Assembly (NCBI GenBank): GCA_013152685.1
Contig: JAADFX010000121.1
Location: 1-42,314 of the forward strand
Direction of reading: 5' to 3'
From: Methanobacteriota archaeon
GTDB taxonomy: Archaea > Hydrothermarchaeota > Hydrothermarchaeia > Hydrothermarchaeales > BMS3B
Length of the DNA: 42,314 nt
In this document: positions 3,020-33,659 of the stretch, one piece after another
How positions within the stretch are numbered: the first letter of the stretch is position 1
Layout: every line of letters starts with the position of its first letter
Made by a program: the position numbers and the translations under genes
The notes under the pieces: model-generated
Database searches by the model: none
Told to the model about the DNA's origin: nothing
The model's input: only the letters and a program-made list of their open reading frames with translations

Positions 3020-3227
3020 ATAAGCCTTCCAACTTTTACCGTTGTAACACTATTTGAAAAATTTTCAACTGCCCGGCAAAGCCGGAGATGCGGCTGAAGG
3101 GCATATCCGGTGCGCTGGCAGCTGCGGCAAAATCTACAGGCTAAAATCAAAAAACAGCAGATATTCTTCTTCTATTTCTGGAAATTCTCCGTGAACACCT
3201 TTGCCGGCACGGCACCATATTTATGGA

Positions 3228-3297
3228 AAATTTTATATATCAAATTTAATTTTAATTATATTGGGAACCATGGTCCTTGTGGATTTAAAAATTTTCA
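3228..3297 (+). promoter_or_regulatory. AT-rich promoter region of the giant cytochrome gene (ttttatatat 3231-3240; atttaaaaatttt 3283-3295)
   Basis: Two TATA-like elements in an otherwise GC-rich context, 50-115 nt upstream of ATG 3348. Confidence 0.4.
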
Positions 3298-3347
3298 ACA
3301 GGTGTGGCAGTGTGAGCTCAGCTCCTGCTTTTCGGCCTTCCGGGGGT

Positions 3348-17700: not shown

Positions 17701-18096
17701 CTTACGTCAGAGGGCTGGAAGGAGGTAGCTGTCAGGAGGGCGGGTGTGCTCAACGGGACCCTGCTGTACGAGCTTGTGCTTCACGAGCCCGGGCGGTATG
17801 CTGTGGTTGCCTCGCCGCCCATTGCTGGAGCCGACCGCCTCGTGGATGAGGAGAAGCCCGAGTGGAGGTTCATCCCTCCCGGCACCGGAGCCGCGGGCGG
17901 TGGAGCGGGGGAGGTGAAGGAGGAGCCCGGGGTTTCAGCTCCTTCGCCCCCATCACCCGCGCCGGAGAACGGCAGGTCTGCGGGGTCCCCGCAGGAGGAG
18001 AGGGGTGGAATATGCGGTCCCACCCTTCTGCTTCTAGTCTCCCTTGTCCCGCTGCTCGGCGCCAGGCTTCTGCGTCAGCCTCAGCCTGCCGAGTAG
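14734..18096 (+). CDS. Large surface protein: right-handed beta-helix (NosD/PbH1-like), multiple Ig-like repeats, PGF-pre-PGF-like domain, C-terminal TM anchor
   Basis: Signal peptide MRACSALLLILLLVGVVRA. Beta-helix turns (NNSIFG, GNTVAGNFV, NIFYNNYF) and DLDGDGIGDTQLPY. Repeated ~95-aa modules (...SPRDGAAYNVSTLPLEV...WTYSLDGGANTSFTPNTTI...; ...SPADGALYSTAQLLINA...WLWSLNGSQNQSFTPPAVV...; ...SPANATYADTRVPLRV...WSYRLNGGPEVGFTPNTTI...). Gly7 linker. C-terminal GGICGPTLLLLVSLVPLLGARLLRQ. Confidence 0.85.
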   Translation: MRACSALLLILLLVGVVRADVIQVTSSSGCVAANATFSDPGEAVLNSGANDTIILCPGVYELSSLTIDKPLKIAGHLRGTAVLNLSTPGYSNRISILADGVELRNLTVVSGGVNVYALYIRGRNITVEDVAVEDGFWYGFYIVSSRNVVLKRVRVRNMAEAALEVRDTTGLILEDSTLVRESSTSSQYTGRYVALYNVSGSTIRNNSIFGVVRDRSDGYDSGFAIYLNSSSGNTVAGNFVRRVSYCIFFDDPSSGNIFYNNYFECGTPPCRDNLGGVNHYNTSRRAGLNIVGGGTLQGNYWGGLLPYSGSDLDGDGIGDTQLPYNATKPQDGVTYILGGGDWGPLIKQRETSPPVVVSVNLLPDQEVATCTDLNLTVTSYAERIEACTLELDGRQLPMNVSGGSYIYYCSYRLCPADFSGGYLPYRVTVRDSANNTADSGYRGLLVNASPALILIHSPRDGAAYNVSTLPLEVGASDGVSQWTYSLDGGANTSFTPNTTITAGEGSHLLEVYARDSAGYLIYRNSSFTVDLTPPSISLTSPLNGSIYTTRNVTLNGTSTEEVSWSYVLNGRSGYPSGLPASLSADEGANRLLVRAVDRAGNAAVAEVSFTVDTSPPTAASSAGSSVRVDVNSSYNLSWRLYDNLAGGYYRLLLNGSPLVDWRPWSNATAVEAAVDTSRLVEYVYTLEFNDSAGWLAVSRVVVDVIDPSPPVINITSPADGALYSTAQLLINATADRAVHTWLWSLNGSQNQSFTPPAVVNLTSDGTYVLDIWANSTSGAMGHASVSFSVDTTPPAVVIASPANATYADTRVPLRVSAGERVLNWSYRLNGGPEVGFTPNTTIAAAAGQNHLVVYALDSAGNRGSASVYFTVSPPSPSPGGGGGGGAKQSTRRLQLVLKDAEAGGYTRLEVERWNISEVLVKPRHTVYYGELVLELLEAPPEAELEGEVYLSFRLVTRPGMLEEARIRFGVDEVWLRRLNLSPEDVGALYLTSEGWKEVAVRRAGVLNGTLLYELVLHEPGRYAVVASPPIAGADRLVDEEKPEWRFIPPGTGAAGGGAGEVKEEPGVSAPSPPSPAPENGRSAGSPQEERGGICGPTLLLLVSLVPLLGARLLRQPQPAE

Positions 18097-18666
18097 CGCT
18101 CTGAGGAAGCTCCTGCTGCCCCTCCCGTTGGTGGCATACACCTTCTCAGCGCCCGAGCTGAATACGGTGCCCAGGCAGCTCTCACAGAAGAGCAGCGACT
18201 TTCTGTCTATCTCATCCACGGTGCTGGAGAACTTCATGTTGCACTCGCTGTTCTCGCAGTGCACCATGCCCAGGGTGTGCCCCAGCTCATGCAGCGCCTC
18301 CTTGAGCAGCCTCTCCAGGAACAGCTCCCTCTCCCATTCCCGGCCGTGCCGGGCATCCCGGAGTCGGAAGGGGGATATAACCGCCCACCTGCCCCCCAGC
18401 GCCGCAAGGCCGAAGATGTAGTCAACCCCCGCGACGGTGATGTCCCTGTCTATCACGGCGAGCACCCTCTCCGCCGCGGTGGGGCGTGAGGCCAGGGTGT
18501 CCAGGAGGTGGTCTGCCAGCACCTGCCCCCTGGAGTTGAAGCGGAGGGGCACCTCCACCGGAGGCGAAACCACAACCTCACCGAAGAACTCGGCCAGCCT
18601 GTCCCTGAGGTACCGCAGCCACTCGTCCTCAACGCAGCCAATGGGTAGTATCTCGAGCACCGTCAC
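18034..18666 (-). CDS. amzA: Archaemetzincin (peptidase M54)
   Basis: HELGHTLGMVHCENSECNMKFSSTVDEIDRKSLLFCESC matches the archaemetzincin signature HExxHxxGxxxCxxxxCxM...CxxC. Typical N-terminus MTVLEILPIG. The 3' tail overlaps the convergent 14734..18096 gene by 63 nt. Confidence 0.85.
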   Translation of the reverse strand: MTVLEILPIGCVEDEWLRYLRDRLAEFFGEVVVSPPVEVPLRFNSRGQVLADHLLDTLASRPTAAERVLAVIDRDITVAGVDYIFGLAALGGRWAVISPFRLRDARHGREWERELFLERLLKEALHELGHTLGMVHCENSECNMKFSSTVDEIDRKSLLFCESCLGTVFSSGAEKVYATNGRGSRSFLRALLGRLRLTQKPGAEQRDKGD

Positions 18667-18689
18667 AGATATACTCTATCTGCTTCACG

Positions 18690-18712
18690 ATTTAAAAATT
18701 TTTTTATATAAG
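18690..18712. promoter_or_regulatory. Shared AT-rich bidirectional promoter (tttaaaaatttttttatata) between amzA and the beta-helix/CWB2 gene
   Basis: Lies 24-44 nt from ATG 18666(-) and 20-40 nt from ATG 18731(+). Both transcripts would be (nearly) leaderless. Confidence 0.4.
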
Positions 18713-18730
18713 CTTGGAAAATATTTATCC

Positions 18731-20590
18731 ATGAGACACCTCCCCCTGCTCCTGCTGCTGCTCCTATCCCTTCCGGCGGCATTTCCGGCGACGGTGTGTC
18801 CCACGGGGTGCGACTACTCCTCCCTCCAGGAGGCGGTTTCCTCTGCCGCGGAGGGGGAGGTTATACTGGTGAAGGGGGGCAGCTATTCTGTCAATCTGGT
18901 GATAAACAGGAGCCTGACGGTGGTGGGCGAGGGCGGTGTGCTCCTCACGCCGGGAGATAGCAGGCTACCTGTGGTGTACGTGGTGTCCTCCGCCAACGTC
19001 ACCCTCAGGGGGCTGGGCATCGACGGCGCAGGACAGAGCTGCGTGGAGGTGGAGCTGTCACGCGGCGTGAGGCTTGAGGAGCTTGAGCTGAGGTCCTGCC
19101 TCTACGGGCTGAGGGTATCCGACTCCTCGAGGCTCGAGGCGGGGGCGCTTACGGTGGAGGGCGCCTCCTTTGGCGTTGAGGTTCAGAACACCACGGGGGT
19201 GAGGCTCGAGGGGCTCACCCTCAGGTCCCCGACTGTGGCGGGGGTAATCCTCTCCGGTAGCAGCGGCTGCTACCTGGGGAAGAGCAGCATACTCCCTGCT
19301 GGAGCTGCCGGCGGTCTCTATCTTCAGAATTCGGACAGCTGCACCATCTCCGAGGTGCTGGTGAGCGGCGGCGGCACGGCGGTTTCGCTTGACGGCTCCT
19401 CCGGGAACACCCTGAGGGGCATCAGGATAGCAGACTCCTCCACCGGCTTTGAGCTTTCAGGCTCCAGGGACAACACCATAACGGGCAGCTCTGTTTCGAG
19501 TGCCGGCGTCGCCGTGTACCTCAAAAACTCCCGGGGGAACCTGCTCTACGGGAACGACTTCACCTCCGGTGGTCCCCAGGCGGTGGTGGACGATAACCCG
19601 AACCTGTGGAACAGCAGCACCGGCAACTACTGGCGGGACTACGGGGGCAGGGACGCGGATGGCGATGGCTTTGGGGATGTGCCCTACGTTATAAACTCCC
19701 TGAATGTGGACCACCTGCCTGTGGTGAGGCCCTTCTTCGCCTTAGCCACCTCCTCGCCGCCCCCGCCTGCGGGGGGAGGCGCCGGGAAGAGGAGGGACCC
19801 CCTGGCTGCGGGCGAGTTTTTCAGGCTGGATGAGGAGCTTCTACTCAGCATACTGGACTACTTCGACGTCAGGGGTAGGGTGTACTCGGTATCCCCGGCT
19901 GCGGGCGCCGCCCTCCTCGCCATCAGAGACAGGAGTCTGTTTCCTGTGACGGGCGCCGGGGAGGTGGACTCCAGGCTGGGCGCTCCCGCGGAGTGGTCGG
20001 GCGGGGACTACAGCCTGGTTGTGGAGGAGGTGGGCAGCTCCTTCACCTTCTCGGAGGACGTGGTGGTGGCGCGGGGGGACATAGGCGCTGATGCGGTATC
20101 TGCGATAGCCTACGCCAGGGCGAGGAGGATACCCCTGCTCCTGGTGGAGCCCGGGCGCACCCCGGCCGAGGTGAGGGGGCTGATTGAGCGGCTGGGCGTC
20201 CGGAGGGTGGTGATAGTGGGCGGACCACGGGCGGTTTCCCCGGCTGTGGAGCGGGAGCTCGCCTCCCTGGCTGAGGTTGTCCGCATATACGGCGAAACCC
20301 GGGTGGAGACCTCCATCAGAATGGCGCAGGCGCTGGAAGGTGTCCGCGGCACCCCGAGGCTGCTGCTGGTGCAGGACGGCTGGCGCACTTCTCCCGGGGC
20401 TGCGATACTCTCCGCCCTGTATGAGGCTCCAGTGCTCTACGTGAGGGGCGACGAGCTCCCACCCTCTCTCGAGGAGTACCTAAAGGAGCTCTCGGGCAGG
20501 GGTGTGGCGGTGGTTTTTGCGGGGGTTTCCCCACCGGTGGAGTCGGCGGTGAGGGAGATACTCAAAGGTCAGAGAAGCCCCACTCCCTGA
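18731..20590 (+). CDS. Secreted beta-helix (NosD-like) protein with C-terminal cell-wall-binding-repeat-2 (CWB2)-like domain
   Basis: Start moved from the track's 18437 (which would overlap amzA antisense) to ATG 18731, giving MRHLPLLLLLLLSLPAAFPA. Beta-helix repeats and DADGDGFGDVPYV. The C-terminal half has CWB2-like motifs (RIPLLLV, VVIVGGPRAVSPAVE, RIYGETRVETSIRMAQ, APVLYV). Confidence 0.8.
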   Translation: MRHLPLLLLLLLSLPAAFPATVCPTGCDYSSLQEAVSSAAEGEVILVKGGSYSVNLVINRSLTVVGEGGVLLTPGDSRLPVVYVVSSANVTLRGLGIDGAGQSCVEVELSRGVRLEELELRSCLYGLRVSDSSRLEAGALTVEGASFGVEVQNTTGVRLEGLTLRSPTVAGVILSGSSGCYLGKSSILPAGAAGGLYLQNSDSCTISEVLVSGGGTAVSLDGSSGNTLRGIRIADSSTGFELSGSRDNTITGSSVSSAGVAVYLKNSRGNLLYGNDFTSGGPQAVVDDNPNLWNSSTGNYWRDYGGRDADGDGFGDVPYVINSLNVDHLPVVRPFFALATSSPPPPAGGGAGKRRDPLAAGEFFRLDEELLLSILDYFDVRGRVYSVSPAAGAALLAIRDRSLFPVTGAGEVDSRLGAPAEWSGGDYSLVVEEVGSSFTFSEDVVVARGDIGADAVSAIAYARARRIPLLLVEPGRTPAEVRGLIERLGVRRVVIVGGPRAVSPAVERELASLAEVVRIYGETRVETSIRMAQALEGVRGTPRLLLVQDGWRTSPGAAILSALYEAPVLYVRGDELPPSLEEYLKELSGRGVAVVFAGVSPPVESAVREILKGQRSPTP

Positions 20591-21857
20591 GGTGGACGTG
20601 CTCCTCACCGCTCCTGAGCCTCTCTATCCTCTCCTCCGTCAGGGCGATGTACCTCCTCAGGTCCTCCTCCAGCCTTGCCACCCTCTCCAGGTCTATCCTG
20701 GAGCCCAGGTCGCCACCGCCTCCCAGCGAGTCCCTGAAGCGTCTGTACTTCTCCAGGCTCTTCTCCATTATTCCGCGCAGGCTGAAGCCACCCAGGAGGA
20801 TGAGCACATCCACTGTGCTCCTTCCGGGCTCTGCGACCAGGCTGGTGTACCTGAGCACTCCCTCCCCTGCCAGGTGCCGGGATGCCCACTCCCTGGCCAC
20901 GTCCTCCAGGTCCTCCTGGGTAATCTCGCCGCCTGTCACCCTCTCCTCGGGTGCCGCAACCACGATGTAGGCCATCGTGCCGGTTCCCCTCTCCACAGGC
21001 GCCATGGCGTTGCCGGAGGCGCTCTCCAGCATCGCCTCCAGGCTCAGCACCTCAGGGTCGTTCCCCAGGCTGAGGCAGGGGGTGAAGTGCACAGTGCCGA
21101 TGTTGCTGGGCAGCTGGTAGTAGTCGGCAATGTCTATAGTGGCCCTGGACCACCGGCTGCTGGGCGCAATGAGCAGGTGTATTGTCCTTATAATCTCCTG
21201 GTTTATCCTGTGGTATCGCTCCGCCCTCTGCCCCCTCCTGATGCCCAGCACCCTCTCCACCTGGGAGTTGTCCACCAGTATCACCAGGGCGGCGTTCTGC
21301 TCACCCTCGTAGCGCAGGAGCCTCGCAAGGCCGCAGATGGCGTTGAAGTGCCTCTGGGGCCCCTCGAAGTCGTAGGGGAGGATTCCCAGCGCCAGGAAGT
21401 TGTTGACCCTCTCCAGCCCCTGTCCCGGGTTCCTCCTCACCCTGTGGATGATGTAGGGCAGCGAGCCGTTCCCCGTGCCTCCGCCCAGGGTGGTGATCCC
21501 CAGAAGCACATCGCTGCTCCTGAGCCTGAGGTCAGCGATGTACCTCCTGATGCTGTCGTAGTCGTCCATCGCCTCCCTCTCACCCAGCACCCAGTTGTTC
21601 CCCGCCCCGCTCGGAGCCCTTCCGAAGATGCAGACGCGCCTCCTCCTTATCCTCTCGAACTCCTTCCTGAGCTCCGGCTCTGAGGCAAATATCTGCTCCA
21701 GGGGCGCCTCCGGCCTCAGGTCTGCCGGCGTAGTGTTCAGCAGCAGCACCCTGTCCTCAATTGCGGGGTTCCTGTACTTTGCGTAGTAGAGGAAGGCTAT
21801 CCTGTTGGCGCCCTGCCCGCTTGCGATTATTCCCCACCGCGTTAGCATTTTCTTCAA
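20562..21857 (-). CDS. Divergent tubulin/FtsZ-superfamily GTPase, CetZ-like (protein B of the pair)
   Basis: IIASGQGANRI (T1-like), GAGNNW (T3-like), GGGTGNG (nt 21465-21485, signature), ILPYDFEG...LVILVDNSQV, TIDIADY (T7-like), and a C-terminal domain ending VDVLILLGGFS. The TTG start overlaps the upstream stop (TTGA); an alternative ATG lies at 21848. Confidence 0.75.
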   Translation of the reverse strand: MKKMLTRWGIIASGQGANRIAFLYYAKYRNPAIEDRVLLLNTTPADLRPEAPLEQIFASEPELRKEFERIRRRRVCIFGRAPSGAGNNWVLGEREAMDDYDSIRRYIADLRLRSSDVLLGITTLGGGTGNGSLPYIIHRVRRNPGQGLERVNNFLALGILPYDFEGPQRHFNAICGLARLLRYEGEQNAALVILVDNSQVERVLGIRRGQRAERYHRINQEIIRTIHLLIAPSSRWSRATIDIADYYQLPSNIGTVHFTPCLSLGNDPEVLSLEAMLESASGNAMAPVERGTGTMAYIVVAAPEERVTGGEITQEDLEDVAREWASRHLAGEGVLRYTSLVAEPGRSTVDVLILLGGFSLRGIMEKSLEKYRRFRDSLGGGGDLGSRIDLERVARLEEDLRRYIALTEERIERLRSGEEHVHLREWGFSDL

Positions 21858-23218
21858 CCCTTCAGCCTGAGCACCTTGCCCTCCAGCACCGCCTCCGGAT
21901 GGGACTCGCTGTACAGCCTCAGGAACTCCTCGGCGTAGCGCACCCCGAGTTCGCCCGCCGAGACCCTGCCCGCCTCCGCCAGCTTCCGGGATATAATCCT
22001 CTCCACCGCGGGGTAGTTCCTGGCTATCTTGACCTCCCTGTACCTCCTGGAGAAGTCTGCGGCTAGGGCGGTGAGCACCTCCAGTGCGCTGCCCGCAAAC
22101 TCCCTGAACTCCCTCCGGGGGTCCAGCTCCGAGATTCTACCCCCGGCGCCCGTCCCCTCCACCGCCCTTCCGAGCTTTCTGAGTTCCTCGTCCAGCACTG
22201 AGATCTCCCTTGCCATCGCCCTGGCGAGCTCCAGGGTGAGCCTCTTCGCCTCCTGGCGGATGCTCCTGAACTCAGCCAGCTGGCCCGGGTCTGTGTAGCT
22301 CTTGGCACGCTCCCTGAGCTCGCGGAGCACCTGCCGTTCCCTCTCAAAGCCCCGGCTCAGCTCCAGCATCCTGTCCAGGTAGGCCAGCACCTCCTCTCTG
22401 GCCTCAAGGAAGGGGCGCGTCAGGTAGCTGGAGACCTCACTCCTGACCCTGAGTAGCCTGTAAACGCTCTCAACCTTCTCCCTCTCCCGCTTTACCCGCT
22501 CCAGCTCCTCCCTGAGGTGGGAGACGTCTGCCACCCCCTCGGCTGTGGTGAGCAGGAACTCGGCCTCCCGAATGCACCTCTCCACCAGCCTCCCGTACTG
22601 CTCCTCACCGCGCCTCCGCTTCTCCAGCAGGTCCTGGAGGCTGGCGGCAGGCATGGATGCAACCCTCCTAAGCTCCTCGTACTCCTCCCTGACGGAGAAG
22701 CCGCCCTCCACCAGCATCTGGGCGGCATCCAGCAGCTCCTGCATGCGCCCAGCCACGGCCTCACCGTAGCTCGCCACCACCAGCGACTCCAGGCTGCGCA
22801 GCTGCTGCTCCACCTTCCTGCTCTCCAGCTCTATGGCGGTCAGGGTCACCCTGTCGATTTTCCCCTCGTTTATCTGGAACTCCCCCGTAAAGAATCCCCT
22901 GGATATCAGCCCCCGCTTTATCCCGGCCAGGTCCTCCATAAAGGGCTCCACGTCCACCATCTCCGACGCTGCCCTGAGGTTCCTCTCCAGCACCTCCACC
23001 GCGTCCTTAATCTTGTTCAGAATTTCAATCTTCAGCAGGACCACAGTTCTGTCGGTTTTGCTCTTCCACCAGGTGTAGACCAGGCTTGCCAGGAGAACGC
23101 TTAGGATCACGCCCACGGCGAGGTAGGACACAAAGCTTATCCCGAAGGTGAGGAGCAGGGCGACCCCCACCCCCAGGGTGAGGAGCACCACGAGTGCGGT
23201 CACCGCGTACTCATTCAT
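21854..23218 (-). CDS. Membrane-hairpin (2 TM) coiled-coil protein, hypothetical; candidate filament tether
   Basis: MNEYAVTALVVLLTLGVGVALLLTFG and FVSYLAVGVILSVLLASLVYTWW, then ~380 aa of E/R/L-rich heptad-like sequence. A possible small globular C-terminal end (ARNYPAVERIISRKLAEAGRVSAGELG...). The ATG overlaps the upstream stop (ATGA 23215-23218). Confidence 0.8.
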   Translation of the reverse strand: MNEYAVTALVVLLTLGVGVALLLTFGISFVSYLAVGVILSVLLASLVYTWWKSKTDRTVVLLKIEILNKIKDAVEVLERNLRAASEMVDVEPFMEDLAGIKRGLISRGFFTGEFQINEGKIDRVTLTAIELESRKVEQQLRSLESLVVASYGEAVAGRMQELLDAAQMLVEGGFSVREEYEELRRVASMPAASLQDLLEKRRRGEEQYGRLVERCIREAEFLLTTAEGVADVSHLREELERVKREREKVESVYRLLRVRSEVSSYLTRPFLEAREEVLAYLDRMLELSRGFERERQVLRELRERAKSYTDPGQLAEFRSIRQEAKRLTLELARAMAREISVLDEELRKLGRAVEGTGAGGRISELDPRREFREFAGSALEVLTALAADFSRRYREVKIARNYPAVERIISRKLAEAGRVSAGELGVRYAEEFLRLYSESHPEAVLEGKVLRLKG

Positions 23219-24417
23219 GCTTCCGCCTCACTCTCCAGAAAGTCCTTCTCGTACTCCTCCAGCACCCTCAGCGAGATGTCCTTGTACTGGCTCGCCAGCT
23301 GGCTCAGGGTTCTGAGCCTCGATATCTGGTTGGGACGGTAGGTGAGCAGCACCGTGGCTGTTGCCAGGTTGCGCTTCGTCAGAGCCACGCCGAAGTGGGT
23401 CTCCCCCAGGCGGGAGTGCTCCTCCATGACCTGCTTCGCCATGCTGGTGTTTATCCTCCCGCGCTTTGTCAGGTAAACCGGAGGTATGCGGAGCAGCACT
23501 AGGTTCTTCTCAGCGTGCTCAGGCCTGAGCTCCGCCACAGTCAGCTTCATGAAGCTCCTGTACAGCAGGGAGATCACATCTATCTCCCGGTGCCCCCCGA
23601 AGGGGAATATGTAGTGCAGGAAGTTCCTTGTCCTCTCGGAGGCCCTCCCCAGGGCGGCGAATCCGTGGCGGGTGCGCTTTCCGAAGGAGAAGCTGGTTGC
23701 CGCGATCATGTCCTTGAGGTCGATCACCGGTGCATAGCCCTCATACCTGGAGGGGTCCACCCTCTCTATGGCGGTGCCTATAAGTATGTCCCTTATGCTC
23801 CTCGCCACATACTCGTTGTACCTCTGGAAGAGGCTCTCGGCGCTCTCCGCGTGGGCAAGCTTCTGGTTGTCCACCAGGATTACGGAGTCCACATTCTCTA
23901 TGAGCAGGTTGAGGCTCTCCACGGAATTTTTTGCTGTCAGCCCCCCCTCGTGGGTTGCCGGAAGAACCACAACGGCTATCACGGGAACTCCCATCTCCTT
24001 GAGCACCCCTGCCACCACGGGTCCGGCACCGCTTCCCGTCCCGCCTCCCAGGGCGAAGGCGACAAATGCCACGGGCACACCCACGCCGCTGTCCCCCTCC
24101 CCCACCCTGGTTCTCTCCACAATCACCTCCTTCAGGTTCTCCCTGAAGCGCAGGGCGTCCTCCTCGGCCCTGGCGCGGTTCTTCCCGTAGCCGCCGCTGA
24201 CGAAGTGCTCAAAGCCGTGCATTGTTCCGGGTATGAACCCCCTGTCCCGGGACATCCCCACCCAGTGCTCCCTCCCGAGGTTCTTGAGCGTCTGAAGGTC
24301 CAGGGTGGCTGAGTTGATTGCTATTGGCACCGCTATCTTGAACATCACCTCGTCGTAAAAAGCAGCATCAATTATGGCGCCGCCGCACTGTCCAACACCG
24401 ATAAACACGTAGGGCAT
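23215..24417 (-). CDS. CetZ-like tubulin/FtsZ-superfamily GTPase (protein A of the pair)
   Basis: MPYVFIGVGQCGGAIIDAAF (tubulin-like GQCG T1 loop), FALGGGTGSGAGPVVAG (signature, nt 24028-24048), VVLPATHEGGLTAKNS...VILVDNQ, VIDLKDM (T7-like), and an FtsZ_C-like end (KNLVLLRIPP...THFGVALT...ATVLLTY). Start moved from the track's 24468 to ATG 24417; the extension lies in the AT-rich promoter. Confidence 0.8.
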   Translation of the reverse strand: MPYVFIGVGQCGGAIIDAAFYDEVMFKIAVPIAINSATLDLQTLKNLGREHWVGMSRDRGFIPGTMHGFEHFVSGGYGKNRARAEEDALRFRENLKEVIVERTRVGEGDSGVGVPVAFVAFALGGGTGSGAGPVVAGVLKEMGVPVIAVVVLPATHEGGLTAKNSVESLNLLIENVDSVILVDNQKLAHAESAESLFQRYNEYVARSIRDILIGTAIERVDPSRYEGYAPVIDLKDMIAATSFSFGKRTRHGFAALGRASERTRNFLHYIFPFGGHREIDVISLLYRSFMKLTVAELRPEHAEKNLVLLRIPPVYLTKRGRINTSMAKQVMEEHSRLGETHFGVALTKRNLATATVLLTYRPNQISRLRTLSQLASQYKDISLRVLEEYEKDFLESEAEA

Positions 24418-24443
24418 TCTTCCACCGGACCTCGGAGACCAGC

Positions 24444-24475
24444 TTTTATATTTAATTACCAAGGTCAATATAAAA
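24444..24475. promoter_or_regulatory. Bidirectional promoter: perfect 9-nt inverted repeat of TATA-like elements (ttttatatt 24444-24452 / aatataaaa 24467-24475)
   Basis: The only AT-rich stretch in the 67-nt spacer between ATG 24417(-) and ATG 24485(+). The distances fit short or absent leaders on both sides. Confidence 0.45.
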
Positions 24476-24484
24476 CATTACTGC

Positions 24485-25429
24485 ATGGGCAGGCCGGTGC
24501 TCCTCCTCGTTTTTATCCTCCTCCTGCCGGCGGTGGCGGCGCAGGACTGCGGCAGTGTGCTCACTGAGCTGAGGGGCTTCACCTCCCCCCTTCTCTCCTC
24601 ACAGCCGGAGTTCGCCCAGGTGAAGCAGGATGTGCTCCTCCTCCTGTACTCCCGGGAGCGCGGGGCATGCGGCCCGGATATGGCAGGCTTCGCCTCGCTG
24701 ACGCTTGAGTACCTGCGGGAGGCCCACGAGGCGTACCTGCTCATGAGCTCCGGGGTGCTCAGCGAGCGCAGGAGCGGCGTGGAGAGGCTGGTGGAGGCGG
24801 CGAACCTGCTGGCTGAGATGGAGTCCTACGCATCGACGCTTGGTCCTGTGGCGGAGGATGCGGTGTTCGCCGCCAGGGAGGGCAGGCGGGGGCTGCTGCT
24901 TGCCCAGGGCATGAGCTCCGAGAGGATGGCGGAGGAGTCCCCGGGCACCCGGGAGAAGCTGGAGCACCTTGAGCTGGCGATAATGAGCTATGAGGCGGCG
25001 GACGCCCTCCAGGCGAAGAGCCTTGAGGTCAGGAGGCAGAACCTGGAGGAGAGGTACACCGCCGACATGGCAGAGGCGGCGCGGCACCTGGAGGAGGCGT
25101 CCATCAGGCTCCGCAGGGCGGTTGAGCTCCGCGACGCCTTTCCCGGCTTCATAGACGCCTACGCCCTTGCCAGGGAGGCGAGGCTGGAGCTCCTCAGGGC
25201 TGGAGAGCTGTACTCTCTCCACAGGGAAGAGGAGATGCTCAGGCAGGTGGAGAGCAGCCTGTCCACAGCCCAGGAAATCTACACCACCTCCCGCCGCAGA
25301 ATACTCCTGCTCTTTGCCCTTGTGGCGGCTGTTCTCACCTCCCTCTCAGTCTACATACAGAGCAGGATCCGGAGCTGGGAGCGGGACAACCACGAGTGCA
25401 GCCTGGGAAATGAGCTGGTGGGTGTGTGA
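24485..25429 (+). CDS. Secreted helical protein with C-terminal TM anchor; hypothetical
   Basis: Signal peptide MGRPVLLLVFILLLPAVAAQ, ~250 aa of A/E/L/R-rich helical sequence, TM ILLLFALVAAVLTSLSVYI, and a short cytoplasmic tail. The stop is 1 nt before the next ATG. Confidence 0.7.
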   Translation: MGRPVLLLVFILLLPAVAAQDCGSVLTELRGFTSPLLSSQPEFAQVKQDVLLLLYSRERGACGPDMAGFASLTLEYLREAHEAYLLMSSGVLSERRSGVERLVEAANLLAEMESYASTLGPVAEDAVFAAREGRRGLLLAQGMSSERMAEESPGTREKLEHLELAIMSYEAADALQAKSLEVRRQNLEERYTADMAEAARHLEEASIRLRRAVELRDAFPGFIDAYALAREARLELLRAGELYSLHREEEMLRQVESSLSTAQEIYTTSRRRILLLFALVAAVLTSLSVYIQSRIRSWERDNHECSLGNELVGV

Positions 25430-25430
25430 G

Positions 25431-27440
25431 ATGCGCTGCCTCCTCCTTCCACTGCTGGTTCTCCTCCTCCTGCCTGCCGCTGCGGCGCAGGTTGAGGCGA
25501 AGTTCAGCTACACCGATGTGGACTTCTACTTCAATGCACCCAGGGACGAGGTCAGCCACTTTGAGGTCAACCTCACCCTGAGGCTGTACAACTCCGACAA
25601 CGAGAGCGCCGCCATCGTTTCCGACCTGAAGGCGGAACTCAGGGGGGAGGCCGCCCAGCGGGGTGTCCAGGTGCTTCTGGAGAAGAGCTACGTGAGGGTG
25701 GAGCCGGAGAGCGTCTCCTACGTGAGGGTCACCTTCAGGGCACCCTCCTCCCTGGCGCAGGGGAGCTATGATGCGGAGCTCAGCGTCAGGGGCAACTACA
25801 CCTACGTAACCAAGGGCGGCGCCTACCTGCTGGTGCACCAGTTCTACATAACGGTGAATGTGGAGCATCCGCCGCCAACCCTGGAGGCCAGCTGGGACAT
25901 GGCCAGGTGGGGCCAGCTGAAGGCGGGGCAGAGCTTTGAGCGGAGGCTGACTGTGCGGGAGGTCTTCGGCTATGCGGATGCGGAGAATGTTACTGTGTAC
26001 CTCTCCAAGACGGGTCCGGTGGAGCTGAACTACTCGCCCCACCTCGGGGACATCCCCGCCGGCGGCTCCAGGCACATGAGCGTTGAGGTGATGGTGCCCT
26101 TGAGGAACCTGGAGCCCGGGGACTACCGGGTGACACCGCGGATTGTCAGTGACGCGGGGGTTGATGTTGCGGAAGCGGAGGGGGCGAACTACACAATTCC
26201 GGAGCCCAGCATGACCCTTTCCACCACCGTTGTGGACTTCGGCAAGCTCACCTTCGAGGCAGGGAGGGATTCCGCAACCCGGAGCGTGGTTGTCTCGGAG
26301 GCGGGGGGCTACACCCCCATAGAGGGCCTGGAGGTAAGGCTGGAAGAAGGTGAGGAGGGCTGGATATCCACCGCCGGTGTGGACTACATTCCCCCGGGGG
26401 GCAGCGTCTCCCTGAACCTCTCGCTGCTTCTCCCGCCGGATGCGAGCCTGGGGAAGAAGAGCTGGGTGTTCCTGCTCACCACCAGGTACGCGGGGAGTGC
26501 GCGGCTGACGGCGAGAGCCACTGTGTACTTCCCGGGGCTGGAGGAGGCGGAGCGGCGGCTCGCGGAGCTGAAGGACCCCAGATACGCCGGCGCCATCGAC
26601 AACCTGAAGAACCTGATAGCCGCGTCCAAGGAGGTCACGGAGCTCAGGGAGATTGCCATGGTAATGGCTGTTTACAGCGGCGTTGTGTCCTTTGTGGACA
26701 GCTTCTCCTCCCCAGAGAACAGGACGCTGGAGGAGAGGGTTGAGATGCTGCTCCTCACCAGGAGCAGCCTGAGCAGGGCGAAGGCGGGTGCGCTTTCCCT
26801 CCGGGACGAGAGCCTCAGGAGCTATGCAATTCCCGCCGTGGAGACTCTGGAGGAGGCCTGGAGGGGCGAGGCCCTTGCGGTTGCAGAGGCCATCCAGGAG
26901 CGCCTGAGGAGCGGCGCCGACTACCGGAGCGCCGCCCTGGACTACGGCAGGCTCAGGACCCTCTACGCCCTGCTGGGTGAGGAGGAGCGCTCCCGCGCCT
27001 ACGCCTCCCGCCAGGAGGAGATGGAGGCAGCCTACTACGGGGCGCTCAGTGAGGCGGCACGGCTCCTGAGGGAGTCGGAGGATGAGTTCTCGGCGGCGCG
27101 GGCGCTGACCCTGAACCTCAGGGAGGCCTCCTTTGTGCTCAGCCCCTTCCGCTATGAGCGCGTGGTCGCCCACTACAGGAACGCCATATCCCTGGCGGAG
27201 AGGGCGGCAGCGCTGCTCAGGAGCGCGGGTGAGGCGGAGGAGGCGGAGCTTGCGGAGAGGCGGGCGGCTGAGCTGAGCAGGACGCTGCGCGACCTGGAGA
27301 GGGCCTTCGCCCTCTACCTGGCGCTTCTCACGGCCTTCTTCCTGTGGTTTGTGGCGAGGGTGACCCTGGGCCTTATTCGCTGGGTCAGGGACTCTGAGGT
27401 CCTCTCGGAGGGGGATGTGGTGCTGGGCGGCGAGACCTGA
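25431..27440 (+). CDS. Secreted protein: N-terminal beta-rich (Ig/CARDB-like) domains, helical domain, C-terminal TM anchor; hypothetical
   Basis: Start moved from the track's 25167 to ATG 25431, giving MRCLLLPLLVLLLLPAAAAQ. Beta-rich first ~400 aa, then a helical A/E/R-rich region, TM YLALLTAFFLWFVARVTLGLI, and a short tail. Confidence 0.75.
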   Translation: MRCLLLPLLVLLLLPAAAAQVEAKFSYTDVDFYFNAPRDEVSHFEVNLTLRLYNSDNESAAIVSDLKAELRGEAAQRGVQVLLEKSYVRVEPESVSYVRVTFRAPSSLAQGSYDAELSVRGNYTYVTKGGAYLLVHQFYITVNVEHPPPTLEASWDMARWGQLKAGQSFERRLTVREVFGYADAENVTVYLSKTGPVELNYSPHLGDIPAGGSRHMSVEVMVPLRNLEPGDYRVTPRIVSDAGVDVAEAEGANYTIPEPSMTLSTTVVDFGKLTFEAGRDSATRSVVVSEAGGYTPIEGLEVRLEEGEEGWISTAGVDYIPPGGSVSLNLSLLLPPDASLGKKSWVFLLTTRYAGSARLTARATVYFPGLEEAERRLAELKDPRYAGAIDNLKNLIAASKEVTELREIAMVMAVYSGVVSFVDSFSSPENRTLEERVEMLLLTRSSLSRAKAGALSLRDESLRSYAIPAVETLEEAWRGEALAVAEAIQERLRSGADYRSAALDYGRLRTLYALLGEEERSRAYASRQEEMEAAYYGALSEAARLLRESEDEFSAARALTLNLREASFVLSPFRYERVVAHYRNAISLAERAAALLRSAGEAEEAELAERRAAELSRTLRDLERAFALYLALLTAFFLWFVARVTLGLIRWVRDSEVLSEGDVVLGGET

Positions 27441-27448
27441 GGCGGGGG

Positions 27449-29842
27449 CTAGAGGTGGCTCCCCCGCAGCCTCATCAGGACCTCCTCGCTCTTCAGCATG
27501 TGCTCCAGGCACAGCAGCAGGTAGCTGGCGAAGCCCAGGAGCGCCTCCTTTTGCTCTGGTGAGGCGCTCTCCGCCCTCTCCAGAAGCTTTTTTGACACCC
27601 GCCACAGGGATGCGGGCGGGTGGATGGAAAGCTCTCCGAGCAGCGAGGTGAGCCTTTCGTCCGCCTCCTGAAGCCGCCTCTCCACCTGCGCGCTGTCCAC
27701 CTCTCCGCCTGTGGAGAAGGGCGGGGGCTCACACCCCTCGGCGCTGCGCATTCTTGAGGAGGCGGAGACCGCCAGATTCTTCCAGTCCTGCATCGCCTCG
27801 ATGAGTAGCTCTACCGCATACCCGGCCGCCTCCACGGCGCCCATTCCCCGGAGCAGGGCCATCTCCTCCGCTCCCCTGAGAACCTCCTCCGCGGCTCTCC
27901 GGAAGAACACGGGCAGGCACGGGTCGTCTACAGAGATGCGCTCGCAGCTCTCGGCAACACTCCGCCTCAGCTCCCCGAGCGTGGCCCTCACCTCCGGCGG
28001 GAGCTCACCCGCAGGCCTGAGCTCCACTTGAACCTCCCCTTCTCCCGGCGGAACCTCCACCTCGCGGGGGGCGAAGCCCTCCTTCTCCACCCTCAGCAGA
28101 GACGGCGCCTCCCCCGCGGGGAGCTCTGCCCTGCCGGAGGCGTCCGTGGTGCTGCCCGCATCGCCCATCCTCACCGCTGCCCCGCTGATTGGCCCGCCGC
28201 CTGGCCCTGTAACCCTTACCCTGAGCCTTCTCTCGGCAGCCTCCACCCCGGCGCCTGCCTCCTGCCTCCTTCGCCTGAGGAGCAGGGCTCCGCCACCTAG
28301 CAGCAGAAGGGCAGCCAGCGCGTATATGAGCCGGGCATCAGCCGCGGGCGCTGAGGTGGAAGCCTTCCCGGTGGGTACCCTCAGAATTCTCCCACCGGAC
28401 AGCACAAGGGCAGCGCTTCCATCAGGCGCCAGGGATATGTCCACCACCCTCGCTAGTGGGCGGAGCGTCCACACCGGCTCGCCCTCCCGGGTCATCAGGT
28501 CCACCCTCCCGGGCGAGGCGAGGAGCAGGTACCCTCCCCCCGCGTCCATTACGGTGGCGTTGTGGTCGAGGGGCAGGGTGCGCACCACTCTGCCGCCGGA
28601 GAGCATCACCACCTCATCCCCCAGCAGCAGGTACAGGACATCTCCCCCTGCTTCGAGGTCCAGGATGCTTGTGTTGAGATTCACCCTCCAGAGTGGGGCG
28701 CCCTCGCCGGAGAGCATCACCACCCTGCCACCGGCAGCAGCGGCGATTCCCTCCCCCGAAACCTCCAGCAGCTCGGGGGTGAACTCGGGCACCTTCCTCC
28801 ACAGCAGTGCTCCGGCGGTGTTGTACAGGTGCAGCTCGCTCCCGGCGAAGAGGGCTATCCTTTCCCTGGAGGCGGCGAGCAGCACCACCTCCCCACCGGT
28901 TGAGGCGTTCCACTGCCTGGCTACCCCGGCGTAGTGGACGATTTTATCCCCCTCTGCGACCACAAACCCCCCATCGTAGGCGGATACCAGCGGTGCAGGG
29001 GAGGTGGCCACCCTGCCCAGCAGCTCTCCGGAGCTGCCCAAGAGGTAGAGCTCGCCCCTGCCCACCGCCACCATGCCCCCGGAGGTCGCCACCACCCGGG
29101 TGATGTTGCCCGGCGGTAGTATCCAGCTTCCCGGGGGTGCGGTGGAGGGCTTCACCAGGGTGATTACCCTGCTGGCTGAGGCGGTTCTGTTGCCAAGGCT
29201 TATGTTCACCACCAGCGGGTACCTGCCAGGTGGCAGTCCGGAGGTGTCCCAGCGGTAGGGCAGGGTGCTGCTCTTCAGGCTTCCGTTGATGTACACCGCC
29301 GGGCTGGCTCCCGGTGTGTGGAGGGCGTCCACCACCAGCACATCTCCCTCAGAGAGGACCTCCTCGAGGGGGGAGGTTATCTCCACATACAGGGCCGGGG
29401 AGGTGTTCAGCACCACCACCTCCCCGTGGGCATAGGCGGTGGCGCACCCGTCTTTAAATGTGAATCTCACCGTCAGGGCGTAGCTTCCGGGGCTGGGAGG
29501 GGCAAAGAAGCCGAAGGAGGAGGCCACCTCCTGCCCGGGAATCGCGCTGCCGGAGTACAGCCGTGCCAGCGGCTGCTCGCTCCAGTTTCCCAGGAGCTCC
29601 GCCTCCACCCGCGTGGCGGCGGCCTCTCCGAAGACCCAGCCTATCCTCCCCTCAATCCTCTGCAGCGGTGCCGCGGCGATGCTCCCCTGCTGCCCCCCAG
29701 CCTCAGGGTTCAGGTCGAAGACGGTTAGGCTCATGAGCTCCGTGCTGCTCCCCGGGCTGAGGTGGTACACATCCCCCCTGCATGAGGCGTGCAGCGGTGG
29801 AAGAAGGAGCAGCAGCATCACAAAGGCTGGTGCCATCCGCAT
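27449..29842 (-). CDS. Single-pass membrane protein: extracellular Ig-like plus PQQ-like beta-propeller, TM, cytoplasmic CarboxypepD_reg-like beta domain and helical domain
   Basis: Signal peptide MRMAPAFVMLLLLLPPLHAS. About seven ~38-aa repeats (e.g. GELYLLGSSGELLGRV, SELHLYNTAGALLWRK, RVVMLSGEGAPLWRV, RVDLMTREGEPVWTL). TM LIYALAALLLLGGGALLLRRRRQ. Then VRVTGPGGGPISGAAVRMGDAGSTTDASGRAEL...LLRVEKEGFAPREVEV and ~200 aa of helical sequence. Confidence 0.75.
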   Translation of the reverse strand: MRMAPAFVMLLLLLPPLHASCRGDVYHLSPGSSTELMSLTVFDLNPEAGGQQGSIAAAPLQRIEGRIGWVFGEAAATRVEAELLGNWSEQPLARLYSGSAIPGQEVASSFGFFAPPSPGSYALTVRFTFKDGCATAYAHGEVVVLNTSPALYVEITSPLEEVLSEGDVLVVDALHTPGASPAVYINGSLKSSTLPYRWDTSGLPPGRYPLVVNISLGNRTASASRVITLVKPSTAPPGSWILPPGNITRVVATSGGMVAVGRGELYLLGSSGELLGRVATSPAPLVSAYDGGFVVAEGDKIVHYAGVARQWNASTGGEVVLLAASRERIALFAGSELHLYNTAGALLWRKVPEFTPELLEVSGEGIAAAAGGRVVMLSGEGAPLWRVNLNTSILDLEAGGDVLYLLLGDEVVMLSGGRVVRTLPLDHNATVMDAGGGYLLLASPGRVDLMTREGEPVWTLRPLARVVDISLAPDGSAALVLSGGRILRVPTGKASTSAPAADARLIYALAALLLLGGGALLLRRRRQEAGAGVEAAERRLRVRVTGPGGGPISGAAVRMGDAGSTTDASGRAELPAGEAPSLLRVEKEGFAPREVEVPPGEGEVQVELRPAGELPPEVRATLGELRRSVAESCERISVDDPCLPVFFRRAAEEVLRGAEEMALLRGMGAVEAAGYAVELLIEAMQDWKNLAVSASSRMRSAEGCEPPPFSTGGEVDSAQVERRLQEADERLTSLLGELSIHPPASLWRVSKKLLERAESASPEQKEALLGFASYLLLCLEHMLKSEEVLMRLRGSHL

Positions 29843-29874
29843 GGAGATAATTTGTTGCGGGTGCAATATGAAGC

Positions 29875-30651
29875 TTAGCACACCTCACCCTCGGCGAAGC
29901 CCTGCCGCAGGTGGGTTATCCTCACCCTCACCTCATCCCCCCTCCGGGCGCCTCTTACGAATACCCTTGTCCCCTTTATGCGGGCTATTCCGTCTCCCCT
30001 CCGACTCTCCCCGGCGATCTTCACCCGGTACACCTCACCCCTCCTGAGCCTGGAGAACCCCCTGCCTATCAGGTACACCTCGGCACTTTCACTGCGGCTC
30101 GCTCTGGGCTTGGTGAGCTTAACATAGCCGAAGCACCCCCTAACCCTCTCCACCAGGCTCTGCAGGAGCTCCCCCTGGAAGACCTTCAGAAGCAGATTGC
30201 CCCCCGGCACCAGGTGCTCCTCTGCAATCTCCAGTGCGAGTTCGCAGAGCTCAATACTCCTGGCGTGGTCTACGTCCCAGATGCCGCTTATGTCTGGAGA
30301 CGCGTCGCTTATCAGGGCATCGCACTCGGGTATGAGCTCCCTGAGCCTCTCCCTGACCTCGGTGCTCCTGAAGTCGCCCCTGAGCAGCACCACATTTTCG
30401 TATTCCAGGGGCTCCACCGCCTGGAGGTCAACCCCCACCACAAGCCCAGAGTCGCCCACAGCCTCCGCGGCAACCTGGGTCCACCCGCCTGGGGCGCACC
30501 CCAGCTCTATCACCCTGTAGCCGGGCCTGAGGATTCCAAAGCGGCGGTTGAGCTGGAGCAGCTTGTACGCCGCCCTGGAGCGGTAGTGCTCCTTCTTCGC
30601 CCTCCTGTAGTAGTAGTCCCTCTTTCTCTCCTTCAGCCAGCGCTTTCCCAT
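29875..30651 (-). CDS. rlmE: 23S rRNA 2'-O-ribose methyltransferase RlmE/FtsJ fused to a C-terminal TRAM domain
   Basis: MGKRWLKERKRDYYYRRAKKEHYRSRAAYKLLQLNRRF...VIELGCAPGGWTQV...DVLISDASPDISG (FtsJ SAM-MTase motifs). C-terminal GEVYRVKIAGESRRGDGIARIKGTRVFVRGARRGDEVRVRI is the TRAM domain. Start taken at ATG 30651 (typical MGK... N-terminus), not the track's 30729. Confidence 0.85.
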   Translation of the reverse strand: MGKRWLKERKRDYYYRRAKKEHYRSRAAYKLLQLNRRFGILRPGYRVIELGCAPGGWTQVAAEAVGDSGLVVGVDLQAVEPLEYENVVLLRGDFRSTEVRERLRELIPECDALISDASPDISGIWDVDHARSIELCELALEIAEEHLVPGGNLLLKVFQGELLQSLVERVRGCFGYVKLTKPRASRSESAEVYLIGRGFSRLRRGEVYRVKIAGESRRGDGIARIKGTRVFVRGARRGDEVRVRITHLRQGFAEGEVC

Positions 30652-30691
30652 ATTCCCACGCACAACGTTAATCATCGCGGGTATTATTGAA

Positions 30692-33619: not shown

Positions 33620-33659
33620 CAACCTTACCATTGTTAAGAATCGCCTCTTCATCGGAGAA

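Follow-up and report, generated by a model that had tools for sequence, protein, structure and literature searches.

What might two divergent, tubulin-like GTPases be doing when their genes bracket, within one operon, the gene for a membrane protein? The question is raised by a 42,314-nucleotide (nt) stretch of DNA from a Hydrothermarchaeota archaeon (contig JAADFX010000121.1; G+C content of about 62%), the whole of which is referred to here as the window. Here 'A' and 'B' designate the two tubulin-superfamily GTPases while 'CC' designates the middle membrane protein. The A-CC-B cluster, we conclude, is genuine, and represents a variant, as yet uncharacterised, among cytoskeletal systems of the tubulin type. 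As to what that system does, we lean, if cautiously, toward a module which couples tubulin-type filaments to the cell envelope, one in which CC would be an adaptor for B in particular, with A and B belonging to separate families. The operon and its promoter region consist of the following, with the basis of each assignment in parentheses.

23215..24417, minus strand: A, a CetZ-like tubulin-superfamily GTPase of 400 amino acids (aa), the operon's first gene (PF00091, alignment with CetZ1).

21854..23218, minus strand: CC, a membrane protein of 454 aa (transmembrane scan, AlphaFold, gene linkage).

20562..21857, minus strand: B, a deep-branching tubulin-superfamily GTPase of 431 or, likelier, 428 aa (Pfam, profiles, AlphaFold).

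24418..24484, unstranded: an AT-rich divergent promoter region of 67 bp, common to the A-CC-B operon and to a second operon, W314-W680, of envelope proteins (reading of the sequence).

A preliminary description of this locus had placed three open reading frames (ORFs), all on the minus strand, within 20562-24417, and these are indeed found there. Translation thus supplies for A the motifs GVGQCGG (aa 7-13), GGGTGSG (aa 124-130; nt 24048-24028), VLPATHEGG, ILVDNQ, and VIDLKD, and for B the motifs SGQGANR, GAGNNW, GGGTGNG (nt 21485-21465), ILPYDFEG, ILVDNSQ, and TIDIAD, all as had been listed. Present as well is the overlap of A's stop with CC's start, i.e., ATGA at 23215-23218. The second of the proposed overlaps, that between CC and B, holds only as a possibility: CC's stop, TGA at 21854-21856, can overlap a TTG start at 21857 (giving a B of 431 aa), but the ATG at 21848, which is 9 nt downstream (giving 428 aa), is more likely B's start, as homologues begin M..TRW and the database representative is 428 aa long. 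CC and B nevertheless are tightly coupled whichever of these starts is used. Overlaps of 4 nt are frequent in prokaryotic operons and by themselves are unremarkable. A itself starts with ATG at 24417, with GGTGG and an AT-rich, TATA-like stretch upstream, and the 67-bp promoter region contains the TATA-like elements TTTATATT and AAATATAAAA. Best homologues, at about 80% identity, are labelled Candidatus Pyrohabitans or Hydrothermarchaeota, by which the window belongs to a Pyrohabitans-like member of that phylum.

That A and B both belong to the tubulin/FtsZ superfamily, as had been proposed, is seen from their T1 loops, from GGGTG(S/N)G, from their scores against PF00091 (Pfam Tubulin), and, for B, from the modelled fold; the resemblance is far beyond chance. 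The two-domain fold is taken for B from an AlphaFold model and for A from sequence alignment to CetZ1. Across both families the T1, T3, T4, and T7 elements vary little or not at all, and both acidic T7 residues are kept, within VIDLKD in A and within TIDIAD in B. Both proteins are therefore predicted to be catalytically competent GTPases, that is, because T1, T4, and the acidic T7 are near-invariant in the two families.

A's closest characterised relatives are CetZ proteins. PF00091 matches A at 81.7 bits (cutoff 33), and a phmmer search of the PDB aligns A over its full length with Haloferax volcanii CetZ1 (4b46; E 5e-17), i.e., A residues 3-388 with CetZ1 residues 3-375. When the PDB is searched instead with a profile of the A family, three CetZ structures come out on top (4e-22 to 1e-19), with FtsZ next at 6e-16, while hhalign joins A with a CetZ profile at 4.5e-35 over 348 columns, the C-terminal domain included. 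An FtsZ_C-like end that had been ascribed to A goes undetected by Pfam's FtsZ_C, but A's C-terminal half does align fully with both 4b46 and the CetZ profile.

The resemblance to CetZ thus stands, but canonical membership does not. Matches to A at E of 1e-50 or better come from Hydrothermarchaeota, Altiarchaeales, Micrarchaeota, and Halobacteria, and these constitute the A family; after them there is a sharp gap, with canonical CetZ proteins appearing only at E of 1e-14 or weaker, at 26-29% identity to A. PF21011, which we take to be the CetZ C-terminal domain, is present, in a precomputed Pfam column, in all CetZ-type matches and in no A-family member, and it finds no match in A at E of 1 or below. 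As the C-terminal halves of A and CetZ still align by hhalign, that absence would appear to reflect divergence rather than a different fold. A bootstrapped neighbour-joining tree, a crude one that lacks archaeal FtsZ and tubulin outgroups, has A as a separate clade at 100%, with CetZ plus a bacterial CetZ-like group (93%) excluding it, and divides A's placement between CetZ (43%) and B plus a third haloarchaeal paralogue, 'C' (45%). By identity, E-value gap, PF21011, and clade, then, A as a canonical CetZ is ruled out; going by its sequence, A is best described as CetZ-like but outside of canonical CetZ.

B is more distant still. Its PF00091 score is 29.4 bits (E 1.2e-6), slightly below the cutoff of 33, and a single-sequence PDB search aligns it across both domains with Methanocaldococcus jannaschii FtsZ (E 4e-7). 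With the B-family profile, archaeal FtsZ and CetZ1 score about equally (~1e-13 to 1e-14), and gamma-tubulin (5e-9) and BtubB (2e-6) score more weakly. The AlphaFold model of B has a complete tubulin/FtsZ fold (pLDDT 83, pTM 0.87), for which Foldseek returns OdinTubulin (TM-score 0.73), M. jannaschii FtsZ, and CetZ, with E of ~1e-17 and TM-scores of 0.6-0.84. By profile as well as by AlphaFold and Foldseek, that is, B lies within this fold rather than outside of it. Its motifs include a tubulin-like GAGNNW T3 loop, GGGTGNGS, a T7 of the form xIDxxDY, and a C-terminal EWGF, the last kept as (E/K)WGF in Hydrothermarchaeota and Altiarchaeales. B as a tubulin proper nonetheless is ruled out, with FtsZ and CetZ1 outscoring gamma-tubulin and BtubB, no Pfam match to Tubulin_C, and the T3 loop alone being tubulin-like. 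To judge from its sequence relationships, B represents a separate, deep-branching family of the tubulin superfamily.

How, then, are A and B related to each other? Their identity is only about 21-25%, and each scores higher against CetZ than against the other, i.e., by hhalign profile comparison 4.5e-35 for A-CetZ, 8e-22 for B-CetZ, and 7e-16 for A-B. The tree renders A, B, canonical CetZ, and the haloarchaeal paralogue C each monophyletic at 100%, and groups B with C (91%). A recent, alpha/beta-type duplication is ruled out by that identity along with the greater closeness of both to CetZ, and A and B are best seen, from such comparisons, as ancient, distinct families. These same findings bear upon the idea, offered in the preliminary description, that A and B may co-assemble in the manner of alpha/beta-tubulin or BtubA/B, with CC as a membrane tether; taken strictly, this would be a heteropolymer in which the two alternate obligately, as in Asgard AtubA/B too, and which CC would tether. 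Low mutual identity, greater closeness to CetZ, and B's grouping with C rather than with A all speak against it, as too does retention of the full acidic T7 by both proteins, since no alpha/beta-type catalytic asymmetry is seen. Paired archaeal paralogues, furthermore, need not co-polymerise, as with FtsZ1/FtsZ2 and CetZ1/CetZ2. In favour are the translational chaining of A, CC, and B in Hydrothermarchaeota and the fact that operons with a pair of tubulin genes are known from elsewhere (bioRxiv 10.64898/2026.02.15.705738). Gene linkage across archaea, considered next, supplies the remaining evidence.

B-family genes were found, in a survey employing one genome per GTDB species, in 104 species: Hydrothermarchaeota, Micrarchaeota, Altiarchaeales, ANME-2/Methanosarcinales, Methanoperedens, and many cultured Halobacteria. 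Gene contexts, mostly from contigs of metagenome-assembled genomes, come from 88 loci subsequently fetched, the ORFs of which were scored with A, B, and CC profiles. For the lineages that have CC the counts are as follows.

Hydrothermarchaeota-like loci: A in 23 of 25, CC in 24 of 25; order A-CC-B, tightly spaced.

Micrarchaeota loci: A in 6 of 6, CC in 6 of 6; order CC-B, with A on the opposite strand.

Methanoperedens-like loci: A in 3 of 3, CC in 3 of 3; order A, two small membrane genes, a long CC, B.

Halobacteria loci: A in 22 of 24, CC in 24 of 24; Methanoperedens-like order plus a third tubulin-like gene upstream.

All three genes occur together in 23 of 25, 6 of 6, 3 of 3, and 22 of 24 of these loci, respectively, and in most loci missing a member of the set a contig end interrupts the locus. 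CC is the gene next upstream of B in 55 of the 57 loci that bear it, and CC-family genes are found in these clusters wherever genome context was inspected. Conservation of the three-gene set beyond this genome thus is upheld as co-occurrence in four lineages but not as a fixed arrangement, with A on the opposite strand or spaced away outside of Hydrothermarchaeota (in Halobacteria, extra genes separate A from CC and B). CC-B, that is, is a strongly conserved pair, while A, though regularly present, is less tightly linked. Since CC-B adjacency is at 55 of 57 while A-B linkage is weaker, it makes more sense to regard CC as partnering B than as tethering a co-polymer of A and B. Identity to the window's A, CC, and B is, respectively, 73, 30, and 54% for locus L001, 45, 25, and 46% in Micrarchaeota, and 39%, weak, and 38% in Methanoperedens-like loci. 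These values drop in parallel, and inheritance as one unit therefore fits.

The heteropolymer is aided by this co-occurrence of A and B in clusters of four lineages, and by the presence of both families, though unlinked, in Altiarchaeales. Against it, the A and B genes nowhere adjoin each other as those of BtubA/B and AtubA/B do, Micrarchaeota have A on the opposite strand, and B is a singleton in ANME-2. We consider an obligate A/B co-polymer to be unlikely, if still deserving of attention, and separate or laterally associated A and B filaments to be more likely. The existence of unlinked A and B singletons could be taken instead to indicate that A, CC, and B have no joint function at all, i.e., that they are neighbours by shared ancestry or chance and act independently. 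CC-B adjacency and A co-occurrence, however, survive rearrangement of the surroundings at A and B identities of 35-45% (CC lower), which leaves independence very improbable indeed.

Singletons are of some interest in themselves. In Altiarchaeales the A gene, too, is a singleton, unlinked from B. In ANME-2 (Methanogaster, L052 3821-11263), singleton B is next to CdhC, with the gene for an S-layer protein not far away. In the Altiarchaeales-like locus L008, B adjoins a phage-sheath-like gene and the gene of a 1068-aa, multi-transmembrane CARDB protein, with L036 being another Altiarchaeales-like singleton locus. Elsewhere, in Hydrothermarchaeota, the cluster is chromosomal, on contigs of 0.6-1.9 Mb.

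What sort of protein is CC? It begins with a transmembrane hairpin, i.e., helices at aa 2-25 and 27-54, followed by WWKSK, and its remainder is 15% E, 14% R, and 13% L. As the hairpin ends in these basic residues, the helical domain is predicted to be cytoplasmic, in agreement with what had been suggested. The earlier view of CC as a coiled-coil protein is right as to the hairpin and the helical, E/R/L-rich rest, but the AlphaFold model (pLDDT 89.8) has for residues 57-416 a series of helices, each of 28-46 residues, rather than a single continuous coiled coil. Internal sequence repeats are unsupported, with pairwise z-scores between helix units of 2.9 or below, so that the periodicity of long and short helices is structural only. 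No Pfam or NCBIfam family is above threshold for CC, Foldseek finds no fold match in the PDB (best E 0.26, TM-score below 0.2), and the CC profile retrieves from the PDB only generic helical bundles, at E of 0.009 or greater. By these searches no EzrA-like or other known tether or fold is found. An exhaustive HMMER search of 1.84 billion representative proteins nonetheless yields 34 relatives, and as these are so few, and nearly all align over about the full length, CC is a specific family rather than a generic coiled coil.

The family's best conserved part is its C-terminal stretch. In the AlphaFold model residues 418-452 form a compact alpha/beta domain with elements in alpha-beta-alpha-alpha-beta-beta order, as in a winged helix. 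That order is typical of winged helices, and the winged-helix protein TubR binds TubZ's tail in TubZRC systems. Since the cluster in several haloarchaea also is found on megaplasmids, one might imagine TubZ-like DNA or plasmid segregation, in which a tubulin-like motor would push or pull DNA bound to this domain of CC. The putative recognition helix (AEEFLRLYSES), however, is acidic and hydrophobic rather than basic, CC is membrane-anchored, the cluster is chromosomal in Hydrothermarchaeota, and a partition system would have no use for the cluster's conserved secreted or membrane proteins, of which there are at least six. Iterated, centromere-like repeats were not found in or near the A-CC-B operon, its promoter region included, and TubZ is but a weak PDB match (7e-8 to 7e-11). 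DNA segregation accordingly seems highly improbable, and a TubZRC-type partition system specifically is ruled out by the missing repeats, the weak TubZ match, and a membrane-bound CC with a non-basic C-terminus.

Beyond the trio, a larger unit is conserved. Three envelope-protein genes located across the divergent promoter region from A, here W314, W680, and W810 (24485-29881), are co-conserved with A-CC-B.

24485..25429, plus strand: W314, with a signal peptide, a helical ectodomain, and a C-terminal transmembrane anchor (transmembrane and signal-peptide scan).

25419..27440, plus strand: W680, with a signal peptide, an NPCBM_assoc/CARDB-like beta-sandwich, a helical region paralogous to W314, and a C-terminal transmembrane segment (Pfam, transmembrane scan).

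27449..29881, minus strand: W810, with a signal peptide, a beta-propeller-like ectodomain of ~480 aa, a transmembrane segment at 517-535, and a cytoplasmic portion, 'W810C' (Pfam, transmembrane scan).

W314-W680 is an operon that diverges from A-CC-B and toward which W810 is convergent. W680's start overlaps W314's stop by 11 nt, and does so identically in L001. All three proteins have orthologues at matching positions in other Hydrothermarchaeota (for W314, which has no Pfam match, L001 among them) and homologues in Methanoperedens-like and haloarchaeal clusters. W810C consists of a CarboxypepD_reg-like beta-sandwich (PF13620 matches W810 at E 2.7e-7) plus a helical domain, and each cluster type has one to three membrane proteins that bear this domain, among them, in Micrarchaeota, a 285-aa protein encoded directly downstream of B; the domain is appended as well to long forms of CC. 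Micrarchaeota A homologues, at ~540 aa, are extended at the C-terminus by a stretch matching W810C's CarboxypepD_reg-like part and then by a polybasic tail (L003 10355-11977, minus strand; L029-L038). B there ends in a polybasic tail too, replacing the WGF motif, and such tails would be compatible with direct lipid binding. Specificity of W810C to tubulin clusters is judged from the fetched loci: a global word-indexed search with W810C gave a single match, that method being too insensitive for so fast-evolving a domain, and a PDB sequence search with W810C gave nothing. Adjoining W810 is a gene for an FtsJ/RlmE-like methyltransferase with a TRAM domain (29875-30729, minus strand), which overlaps W810's annotated start by 7 nt; W810 may be co-transcribed with that gene, or may start further downstream, e.g., at the MRMAPAF methionines.

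Combination of tubulin-superfamily GTPases with a membrane-inserted partner and further membrane proteins might equally bring to mind a membrane-remodelling, division-accessory, or vesicle-forming system, comparable to what has been proposed for FtsZl1 or to FtsZ1/FtsZ2 with SepF. Makarova and Koonin did propose membrane remodelling for other non-canonical FtsZ-like clusters (PMC2875224). The partners that define FtsZl1 systems, i.e., a vWA protein along with a distinct GTPase and proteins of the OmpA family (PMC2875224), are absent here, as a Pfam scan of the neighbours found no vWA, OmpA, or extra GTPase, and Tubulin_2 matches A at just 11.3 bits (cutoff 27). Nor are SepF or ESCRT genes in the cluster. 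Large ectodomains, beta-propeller and Ig-like, suggest the cell surface rather than scission, and a distribution that is patchy and plasmid-borne speaks against a core role in division. Remodelling of membranes thus strikes us as a rather improbable function for the cluster.

Plasmid carriage is seen in Halobacteria. Plasmid pHS2 of Halobacterium salinarum R1 has a complete cluster, in which A (OE_RS12060) and the third paralogue are annotated as 'cell division protein FtsZ' and B (OE_RS12040) and CC (OE_RS12045) as 'hypothetical protein', and B-family homologues are found on four further haloarchaeal plasmids. Paralogue C, of ~530-540 aa (L089 6372-7994, which is OE_RS12070 of pHS2; L006 247-1836; upstream in L066-L088), is flanked by a 630-aa membrane protein and by a 454-aa protein that is without a detectable domain, and together these may be a second filament-plus-partner module. 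Adjoining the pHS2 cluster (L089 21675-25906) are a 911-aa PQQ-like beta-propeller/CARDB protein and a 498-aa, CDC48-like AAA ATPase; this ATPase partner is absent from the Hydrothermarchaeota version of the cluster. Phages and defence offer no better account of its origin: PADLOC's defence-system models return no matches, no relatives are found on viral contigs, and matches to PHROGs are weak (A to PhuZ at E 9.5e-4, B at E 6e-4), which leaves either origin unsupported.

From folds, motifs, topology, conservation, and gene linkage, which are observed, we infer a scheme of polymerisation, CC-B contact, envelope coupling, and cellular role. The window would carry one copy of a conserved, horizontally spread archaeal module that links tubulin-type filaments to the envelope. 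A, which is CetZ-like, and B, of a separate and older family, would be active GTPases that polymerise beneath the membrane. CC, with its N-terminal hairpin in the membrane, would reach into the cytoplasm with ~360 helical residues that end in a small globular domain at the C-terminus, there serving as a dedicated membrane adaptor or organiser of B filaments. The conserved C-terminal domain of CC possibly binds B's C-terminal (E/K)WGF peptide, much as ZipA, FtsA, and SepF bind FtsZ's C-terminal tail. W314, W680, and W810 would represent the outward-facing part of the module, with W810C domains perhaps docking on filaments or on CC and thereby linking these to the beta-propeller outside. Output likely would be the positioning or shaping of the envelope or of surface structures, i.e., cell shape or surface organisation, rather than core division. 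That is, given a patchy and plasmid-borne distribution, the module is better viewed as accessory.

A number of points weigh against this envelope-coupling model. B is found without CC in 25 ANME-2/Methanosarcinales and 5 Altiarchaeales-like loci, CC's absence having been checked within 10 kb on either side and inspected neighbours being housekeeping genes; as B stands alone in those lineages, CC is not universally needed by B-family proteins. Micrarchaeota clusters lack both W314 and W680. CC is unlike any known FtsZ or tubulin tether, such that what suggests a tether role for it is topology along with gene linkage. Contacts between proteins, as the model posits them, are inferred only, and the cellular role is a guess. 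Plasmid carriage in haloarchaea marks the module as accessory.

A bolder version can be entertained as well. The filaments (A, B, and the haloarchaeal C), being dynamic, might be coupled mechanically via CC and W810C to single-pass proteins bearing beta-propeller and Ig-like ectodomains as a trans-envelope linkage machine, resembling in its logic integrin-type focal adhesions or the gliding complexes of Myxococcus. If that were so, then an archaeon could move, pattern, or pull surface structures from inside, and this would be the first archaeal system to transmit force from cytoskeleton to surface. We regard so elaborate a machine as a speculative and decidedly improbable extension.

Other features of the window may be noted briefly. 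Beside the cluster are two large secreted NosD/right-handed beta-helix proteins (14734-18096 and 18437-20590, both plus strand), one with Ig-like domains and a C-terminal transmembrane segment and the other with a CWB2 cell-wall-binding domain; this pair is not co-conserved in L001. A 1735-aa multihaem cytochrome (3201-8408, plus strand), in which there are six matches to MtrC/MtrF-like domain II/IV, an MG2 domain, and repeats of the cytochrome c7 and c3 types, suggests that this Hydrothermarchaeota genome may have a capacity for extracellular electron transfer. Unrelated to the cluster are an archaemetzincin-like M54 peptidase (18034-18666, minus strand) and a DUF6866 protein with both N- and C-terminal domains (33495-34739, plus strand). 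No tRNA or Rfam features are present within the window, and a scan gave no excess of terminator-like sites and no sigma-70-type promoter matches, though its promoter model is bacterial and so not meaningful for an archaeon.

To what extent has this system been seen before? Such proteins do figure in earlier surveys, under the labels of non-canonical or CetZ-like, and 'quasi-tandem' copies and neighbours with coiled coils were remarked upon (PMC9871819, PMC9856176). Brown and Duggin (2023) limit CetZ to Halobacteria, Thermococcales, Archaeoglobales, Methanomicrobiales, and Methanosarcinales, with others being 'non-canonical', and their table gives H. salinarum R1 eight tubulin-superfamily proteins, three of them in the last column. 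If that column is read as the non-canonical class, then those three agree with the three tubulin-like genes of pHS2. Santana-Molina et al. (2023) describe 'CetZ-like' and 'Halo.Tub' groups, the contexts of which are called unknown, with tubulin-like N-terminal blocks that are reported in Altiarchaeota, Methanosarcina, and Halobacteria. Blocks of this kind fit B's GAGNNW loop, just as coiled-coil neighbours and quasi-tandem copies fit the present cluster. The A, B, and C proteins probably are those surveys' non-canonical, CetZ-like/Halo.Tub groups, as matched by counts and descriptions rather than by accessions. What was not defined there are the A, B, and CC families, the gene set, its spread over Hydrothermarchaeota and Micrarchaeota, and a function, and no published definition of these families, of the cluster, or of its function was found in a literature search which reached few subscription journals. 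The earlier suggestion of an undescribed module therefore is sound as to families, cluster, and function, for which no published characterisation was found, but the proteins themselves had already been glimpsed.

With this, the 'non-canonical' tubulin-like proteins of recent surveys gain family structure and genomic context. More generally, the cluster supplies a candidate set for the attachment to membrane or envelope of archaeal tubulin-like filaments other than FtsZ: two non-canonical GTPases (three in haloarchaea), a family-specific membrane adaptor, and envelope proteins that have in common a cytoplasmic domain. The cluster spans Hydrothermarchaeota and DPANN archaea through to Halobacteria, and presence of the pHS2 version in the genetically tractable H. 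salinarum R1 renders these hypotheses directly testable.

It remains to set the cluster beside known systems. CetZ proteins, among them CetZ1 and CetZ2 of H. volcanii and CetZ of M. thermophila, control cell shape and motility, and to our knowledge they have no dedicated membrane partner, anchor, or envelope partner. A shares with them the GxGQxGG T1 loop, GGGTGSG, and full-length alignment including the C-terminal domain. Described CetZ neighbourhoods, by contrast, consist of genes for type IV pili and for cofactor and nucleotide biosynthesis (PMC9856176), unlike A's cluster.

With FtsZl1 there is in common a non-canonical FtsZ-like GTPase for which a role at the membrane is predicted and whose gene belongs to a conserved cluster that also encodes membrane proteins. 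FtsZl1, however, carries Tubulin_2 and, as Makarova and Koonin are said to have described it in 2010, is without the FtsZ C-terminal domain. Such a domain is present in these proteins, and FtsZl1/FtsZl2 membership is ruled out by this, by Tubulin_2 falling short of its cutoff for A and giving nothing for B, and by the missing vWA, OmpA, and extra-GTPase neighbours. No match was found to an FtsZl1 neighbourhood or to another characterised operon, either of which the preliminary description had allowed for.

FtsZ tethers (SepF in archaea; ZipA, FtsA, and EzrA in bacteria) offer a further likeness, that of a membrane-anchored protein encoded with the polymer it presumably recruits, often via a C-terminal peptide. 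EzrA, for example, has an N-terminal transmembrane segment followed by a long helical cytoplasmic domain. A functional analogy of CC with EzrA, ZipA, and SepF is possible, but CC has no detectable similarity to these tethers in sequence or fold, and enters the membrane as a two-helix hairpin rather than by means of a single transmembrane or amphipathic helix.

Paired tubulins, lastly, i.e., BtubA/B(-BtubC), AtubA/B, and alpha/beta, are similar in consisting of two paralogues which, as here, may share an operon in which gene junctions overlap or are very short. The BtubA/B and AtubA/B genes, however, are adjacent, and their products are mutual closest relatives and obligate heterodimers, whereas A and B are distant from each other, have CC between them, and sometimes are unlinked.

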